Source: a virus (taxonomy: Duplodnaviria; Heunggongvirae; Uroviricota; Caudoviricetes). Taken from it: a stretch of DNA of 5,115 nt. This document shows, piece by piece, positions 222 to 300 of this stretch (position 1 is the first letter of the stretch; every line of letters begins with the position of its first letter). The notes beneath the pieces are model-generated. The model saw only the letters and a list, made by a program, of their open reading frames with translations, made no database searches and had not been told where the DNA came from. Position numbers and translations under genes: made by a program. The stretch lies in the IMG/VR virus record IMGVR_UViG_2541047434_000040. The stretch is one strand, 5' to 3'.

Positions 222-290
222 ATGGCGCTTTACACAATTGGTGAAGTGGCGTTGCTTTGTGATATTAACCCTGTCACGTTACGCGCGTGA
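222..290 (+). pseudogene. mlrA: 5' fragment of an MlrA/YehV-like MerR-family regulator gene (22 codons, then TGA); presumed disrupted by prophage integration
   Basis: ATG at 222 preceded by AGGGTGAG; translation MALYTIGEVALLCDINPVTLRA then stop at 288..290. This matches, from memory, the N-terminal HTH start of E. coli MlrA, which normally continues (WQRRYG...). Downstream sequence does not continue the MerR fold in frame. Confidence 0.5.
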
Positions 291-300
291 CGCAACATTT
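285..300. other. Approximate host/prophage junction (att core region), position inferred only
   Basis: Point where the MlrA-like reading frame stops matching its expected continuation; left of it is a promoter/RBS/5' gene context, right of it are phage-type genes. Exact core not determinable without the uninterrupted host allele. Confidence 0.3.

Follow-up and report, generated by a model that had tools for sequence, protein, structure and literature searches.

Why does an open reading frame that begins like the gene of a host MerR-family regulator stop after 22 codons, next to a block of phage genes? The question is raised by a stretch of 5,115 nucleotides from a Caudoviricetes record (IMGVR_UViG_2541047434_000040), called the window here. 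We conclude, with a probability of about 0.97, that a lambdoid prophage of the Sp15/CP-933V/VT1-Sakai type lies inside mlrA (yehV) and that the window contains one of its ends. This is the tail-fibre/dinI end of the prophage, 'attR' by lambda convention and the 'yehV left junction' of the O157 typing literature. The junction has long been known as a published, GenBank-annotated and PCR-typed feature of O157:H7. What is added here is confirmation and exact coordinates, that is, a breakpoint at 289|290, a core of 20 or 21 bp and a stop codon made by the junction (Table 1).

Table 1. Features of the window, with positions, strand and the evidence for each
Feature	Position	Strand	Evidence
Host DNA, btsS(yehU)-mlrA intergenic region with mlrA promoter region and 5' leader	1-221	+	2 substitutions vs K-12 MG1655
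mlrA' (yehV'), first 22 codons of MerR-family MlrA, then TGA	222-290	+	ATG ORF, translation MALYTIGEVALLCDINPVTLRA
att core at the tail-end junction	269-289		three-way alignment and GenBank annotation
Inverted repeat GTCACG-N7-CGTGAC over the core/phage boundary	273-291		read from the sequence
Phage att arm, tail/dinI side of attP	290-514	+	100% identical to VT1-Sakai, YYZ-2008 and phi330
Sigma-70-like promoter, TTGACA-18-AAAAAT	449-478	+	promoter scan; annotated at AP000400.1 8230-8258
SOS (LexA) box, canonical CTGTACATAACTACAG at 484-499	482-501	+	annotated as putative SOS box at AP000400.1 8263-8282
dinI-like gene, 82 aa, pointing away from the junction	515-763	+	Pfam DinI, E 1e-19; WP_001261937.1; H0001 in VT1-Sakai
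Tail-fibre C-terminal-domain protein, 89 aa	1131-1400	-	Pfam Phage_fiber_C, E 5e-36
Side tail fibre, 437 aa, collagen-like Gly-X-Y repeats	1402-2715	-	Pfam phage_tail_N, Collagen, Phage_fiber_C
lom, Ail/Lom outer-membrane protein, 199 aa	2780-3379	-	Pfam Ail_Lom, E 1e-123, full length
J tail-tip gene, 3' part, runs off the window	3448-5115	-	split into three ORFs

The truncation of mlrA at the breakpoint

Positions 1-289 were aligned without gaps to the btsS(yehU)-mlrA(yehV) region of E. coli K-12, and 286 of the 289 nucleotides were identical (E 4e-148). One of the three differences, at 269, is a synonymous AAC/AAT change. Position 1 is the base right after the start codon of the divergent btsS, and btsS ends one base before it in O157 genomes carrying an identical 1-520; the btsS coding sequence itself lies outside the window, and its place as a neighbour was judged from these O157 genomes with the identical 520 nt. 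In complete O157:H7 genomes btsR and yehS precede btsS, the same order as in K-12. The translated frame matches residues 1-22 of MlrA from K-12 MG1655 (244 aa) at 22 of 22 positions, and the K-12 protein then continues with WQRRYGLL. Similarity to K-12 stops abruptly at 289|290, and searches of the window revealed no mlrA similarity beyond 290 at the DNA or the protein level. The TGA codon straddles the breakpoint; its TG (288-289) belongs to the host or core and its A (290) to the phage, at a place where K-12 has TGG (Trp23). A preliminary description, made from the sequence alone, had taken the frame for the 5' end of mlrA cut after codon 22, and the alignment with the uninterrupted K-12 locus confirmed this and fixed the exact breakpoint, with no continuation of mlrA past 289 within the window. 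Of the interval first assigned to the feature, 222-300, the start is correct and the end is not, as the stop is reached at 290, 10 nt earlier.

PGAP calls the stub a C-terminally incomplete pseudogene. The full MlrA protein has three Pfam domains, MerR_1 (4-72), MlrA_helical (81-155) and MlrA_C (162-238). The 22-residue stub covers only profile positions 1-17 of 38 in Pfam MerR and scores 19.4 bits, below the cut-off of 28.2. The insertion splits the MerR DNA-binding motif, and the truncated mlrA does not have the complete MerR helix-turn-helix, MlrA_helical and MlrA_C.

A weak MlrA-like echo had also been noticed further downstream (KGWIDDS versus KRWIDNG), possibly a phage-borne degenerate copy. 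When K-12 MlrA was compared by tblastn with window 1-900 (a 900-nt search space), the echo appeared only within a gapped alignment at E = 5.6, beside dozens of equally weak ones. The resemblance is attributed to chance.

The attachment core, the phage arm and dinI

Three-way alignment of the window junction, the K-12 attB and the int-side junction gave a common core of 20 bp, CCTGTCACGTTACGCGCGTG, at 270-289. The window and the int-side copy also share the preceding C (269), where K-12 has T, and this extends their identity to 21 bp. C269 is a natural allele, found in the intact mlrA of three other, unrelated strains. In the VT1-Sakai record AP000400.1, the 20 bp corresponding to 270-289 (8051-8070) are annotated as 'attachment site of Enterobacteria phage VT1-Sakai', with a misc_recomb feature also at 55931-55950, and 8003-8071 (window 222-290) is annotated as 'truncated protein of E. 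coli K12 YehV'. In FJ184280.1 (YYZ-2008), a 21-bp repeat_region described as 'direct repeat due to prophage insertion' equals window 269-289. The K-12 alignment, these annotations of VT1-Sakai and YYZ-2008 and the matching int-side junction in VT1-Sakai all support the prophage integration junction proposed in the preliminary description.

The inverted repeat over the core/phage boundary is perfect in the window, while the right half in the K-12 attB is CGTGGC. GTCACG and CGTGAC are putative core-type integrase-binding half-sites around a 7-bp overlap, TTACGCG. The phage arm has three copies of the motif TGYCCCAT (404, 415 and 426, within 404-433), spaced by 11 bp; 0.54 occurrences would be expected in the whole window. 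The opposite arm has two further copies, which fall within the end of int in VT1-Sakai (3361-3378 of the extracted stretch, in the 3' part of the gene). These repeats are likely candidates for arm-type Int sites. In phage Stx1_14040, exactly one 11-bp unit of the arm repeats is missing. We propose that a tyrosine integrase put the prophage into codons 17-23 of E. coli mlrA and that recombination would take place within the TTACGCG overlap with the help of the candidate arm-type sites. The phage sequence, which begins at 290, supplies the A turning Trp23 (TGG) into TGA. Excision of the prophage would be expected to restore mlrA exactly. A passage in PMC5931665, with reference to Shaikh & Tarr 2003 and to Uhlich 2016, states that excision restores native mlrA.

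An integrase 3'-end remnant in the arm was considered and rejected. A peptide KSVPYMPH, followed by a stop, resembles the Int C-terminus SVPCMPHKKAG, but tblastn gave E = 0.38 with no upstream extension. The TGYCCCAT motif present as DNA in both arms is a better explanation of this peptide than a remnant of int.

Two other origins of the premature stop have to be weighed against insertion. If mlrA were otherwise intact, without an insertion, and codon 23 had simply mutated from TGG to TGA, this would account for the first differing base beyond the core being precisely the third of that codon. Such a nonsense mutation is already refuted by the K-12 alignment, as mlrA similarity is absent after 290 in both DNA and protein, and what follows matches the att arm of VT1-Sakai and of YYZ-2008 at 100%; its probability is practically nil. 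It is also extremely improbable that an assembly chimera or artefact joined host and phage reads. The two private single-base indels in the J gene of the window may point to imperfect sequence quality, but the junction (1-520) is found at 100% in many independent complete genomes, and among 5,426 complete E. coli genomes 475 have it at a coverage of at least 80%, the matches listed being mostly O157:H7. Phage records deposited independently contain it too, and its amplification by PCR is routine (PMC8309913); yehV-inR, the reverse primer of that 'yehV left junction' PCR, matches the window exactly at 552-573. Among the same 5,426 genomes, 4,944 have an uninterrupted mlrA site across the breakpoint. 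We keep the insertion of a prophage into mlrA as the explanation of the stop, and no observation made here speaks against it.

Because the promoter and the SOS box lie directly upstream of the dinI-like gene, this gene at the prophage end is predicted to be LexA-controlled, in line with the annotation of AP000400.1. The mlrA promoter and leader (1-221), the 22-codon stub, the att arm and the dinI-like gene are all on the same strand. No convincing terminator was found between mlrA' and dinI. The core hairpin with its T-run, the only hairpin in this interval, was examined as an intrinsic terminator of the mlrA' transcript and rejected (-9.8 kcal/mol, z = -1.56, 13 of 200 shuffles folding equally well). 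Transcription from the mlrA promoter, which is RpoS-dependent and survives the insertion, might run on into the dinI-like gene, although this is speculation and we regard it as unlikely. If it were true, the insertion would both remove MlrA and put a phage RecA-modulator under host stationary-phase control, beside its own LexA-controlled promoter.

The prophage in the site and the fate of mlrA

The tail-fibre genes, lom and J are all transcribed toward the junction. The preliminary description had called all DNA to the right phage-type, with tail-fibre genes running toward this point, and the Pfam matches and annotation agree, with the dinI-like gene on the plus strand and the tail fibres, lom and J on the minus strand. 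Phage_fiber_C is common to the 89-aa protein and the C-terminus of the 437-aa fibre, and the latter contains about 100 residues of collagen-like Gly-X-Y repeats. The spacer at 764-1130 contains no credible gene; a 66-aa ORF (920-1120) has no Pfam match, and the PGAP call at 1041-1129 is a frameshifted fragment. At this position, between dinI and the tail fibre, related phages carry nleC and nleG, which are type III effector genes. A hairpin, CCGGAG-N5-CTCCGG with A- and T-run flanks (about 1091-1116), resembles a bidirectional terminator; it was read by eye and not obtained from a scan.

Compared with all relatives, J has lost 1 nt near 4030 and gained 1 nt near 4468, which splits it into three ORFs; Sakai, FDAARGOS_293 and strain 272 are intact there. 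No exact match to 3980-4520 was found in the 5,426 complete E. coli genomes, the best being 99.4%. The split J is either a strain-specific pseudogene, which would mean a defective tail, or a sequencing error. The best whole-window identity among complete genomes and phage records was 99.1%.

The second junction, the integrase and any stx1 genes were viewed in related genomes, as the 5.1-kb window covers one prophage end. The matching other junction, which the preliminary description had suggested looking for, was found in the VT1-Sakai record. At its far end xis and int (54606-55892) are followed, after 38 bp, by an identical core (55931-55950) and by the remainder of mlrA, which is present from codon 17 onward and has GCAGAGGCGTTACGG after the core. 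In reference genomes the two halves of mlrA are about 48-50 kb apart, with the distal half behind int-xis and the second core. No MlrA N-terminus with an in-frame start was found at the int-side junction. The possibility that the phage rebuilds mlrA at this junction was ruled out, because the frame is closed by a TAG five codons ahead of the core, and no start codon lies between the two.

From established knowledge of MerR proteins, the 22-residue product would end inside the helix-turn-helix and could not be expected to bind DNA. The distal fragment would have no promoter, no start codon and no first helix. The cell would lack MlrA, the RpoS-dependent activator of csgD, because neither part could replace it, and this loss would lower curli, cellulose and biofilm, as published for O157:H7. 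Passages in PMC5931665 and in PMC3874044, citing Uhlich et al. 2013 (Microbiology 159:1586), report that insertion in mlrA of O157:H7 reduces csgD expression, curli, biofilm and Congo-red binding; the lowered csgD and curli expression first suggested for this junction is, in these passages, a published phenotype. The same two sources, where they cite Uhlich 2013 and 2016, also state that distal mlrA fragments fail to restore csgD expression. In most clinical O157:H7 isolates, the csgD-dependent formation of curli and biofilm is limited by the loss of MlrA. Stx-phage typing uses the yehV site as a standard marker.

The arrangement of the two halves varies among strains. In FDAARGOS_293 (NZ_CP022050.2), the prophage that starts at the mlrA junction ends beside yccA/tusE and not at the rest of mlrA. 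In strain 272 (NZ_CP018239.1), the prophage runs from the mlrA junction into DLP12-type genes (ybcK, emrE). Both prophages contain IS elements, and a P4-like island is inserted in the one of strain 272. These arrangements indicate large recombination or inversion events between prophages. Therefore, the partner junction need not be adjacent, and the halves of mlrA are not always about 50 kb apart.

Whether the occupant of the site is an inducible Stx1-converting phage is a separate matter, which concerns the identity of the element and not the mlrA lesion. In a Stx1-converting phage, stx1AB would lie downstream of Q, a part of the prophage beyond the 5.1-kb window. The odds are about even that the junction is genuine and the occupant is a stx-negative or decayed remnant. 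According to the part of PMC8309913 that cites Shaikh & Tarr 2003, stx1-negative O157 strains commonly have non-Stx or truncated phages in yehV. Only about 28 kb separate the two mlrA halves in strain 86-24, J is frameshifted in the window, and the IS-ridden prophages of FDAARGOS_293 and strain 272, which end at or continue into other loci, have no stx in the roughly 50 kb examined. Against a remnant, the closest phage record is that of the Stx1 phage VT1-Sakai (98.6%), and Stx1a phages occupied yehV in 29 of 30 stx1a-positive O157 strains (PMC8309913). In that study, yehV was occupied in 96.5% of 346 O157 strains.

Comparison with known phages

Sp15/VT1-Sakai (AP000400.1) and CP-933V are the Stx1 prophages of O157:H7 Sakai and EDL933, respectively, in yehV (mlrA). 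VT1-Sakai was the best phage match to 290-5115, with 98.6% identity over 99% of the query (4.8 kb). It has the same host flank, 20-bp core, att arm, SOS-box promoter and dinI as the window, with 100% identity over 280-520, and its gene order is also the same (dinI, tail fibre, lom, J). Its J is disrupted as well, but at a different position. The window differs from VT1-Sakai by about 1.3% substitutions, clustered in the tail-fibre genes and J, besides the two 1-nt indels in J that are private to the window. The concentration of substitutions mostly in the tail-fibre genes suggests mosaic exchange between the numerous lambdoid prophages that O157 carries. YYZ-2008 (FJ184280.1) and phi330 (PV189401.1) are 100% identical to the window in the att arm and the start of dinI. 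YYZ-2008 differs between dinI and the tail fibre, its alignment with the window being limited to 1-866 and 1062-2070 (94-98%).

A related arm is found in phages that use another target. PPyecE_EH1910 (LC567835.1), Stx1_14040 (LC567819.1) and related Stx2a phages carry the same arm and dinI from window position 288, at 95-99% identity, and share the TGYCCCAT repeats with the window. These phages target the 5' part of yecE and not mlrA, and a check of the flank confirmed yecD-yecE. Their integrase shows 83% identity over its whole length and complete identity over roughly the first 100 residues. Their core, CCCGTCACTTTAACTGCrTG (343-363 and 350-370 of the extracted stretches), compared with CCTGTCACGTTACGCGCGTG of the window, has the same GTCAC-N9-GTGAC frame, whereas the central bases differ (TTTAACTGC vs GTTACGCGC). 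To judge from these sequences, this looks like a shared arm-binding domain with shared arm sites, which would have been retargeted to another integration site by changes in the central core.

The window junction can also be compared with the attR of lambda (POB', beside J and the b region). Both represent the same end of a lambdoid prophage, where J-lom-stf-tfa run toward the junction, and lambda likewise uses a tyrosine integrase, a short core and arm-type repeats, as proposed here for the window. Lambda differs in that its site is intergenic, between gal and bio, so that no gene is disrupted, and its core and arm sequences are unrelated to those of the window.
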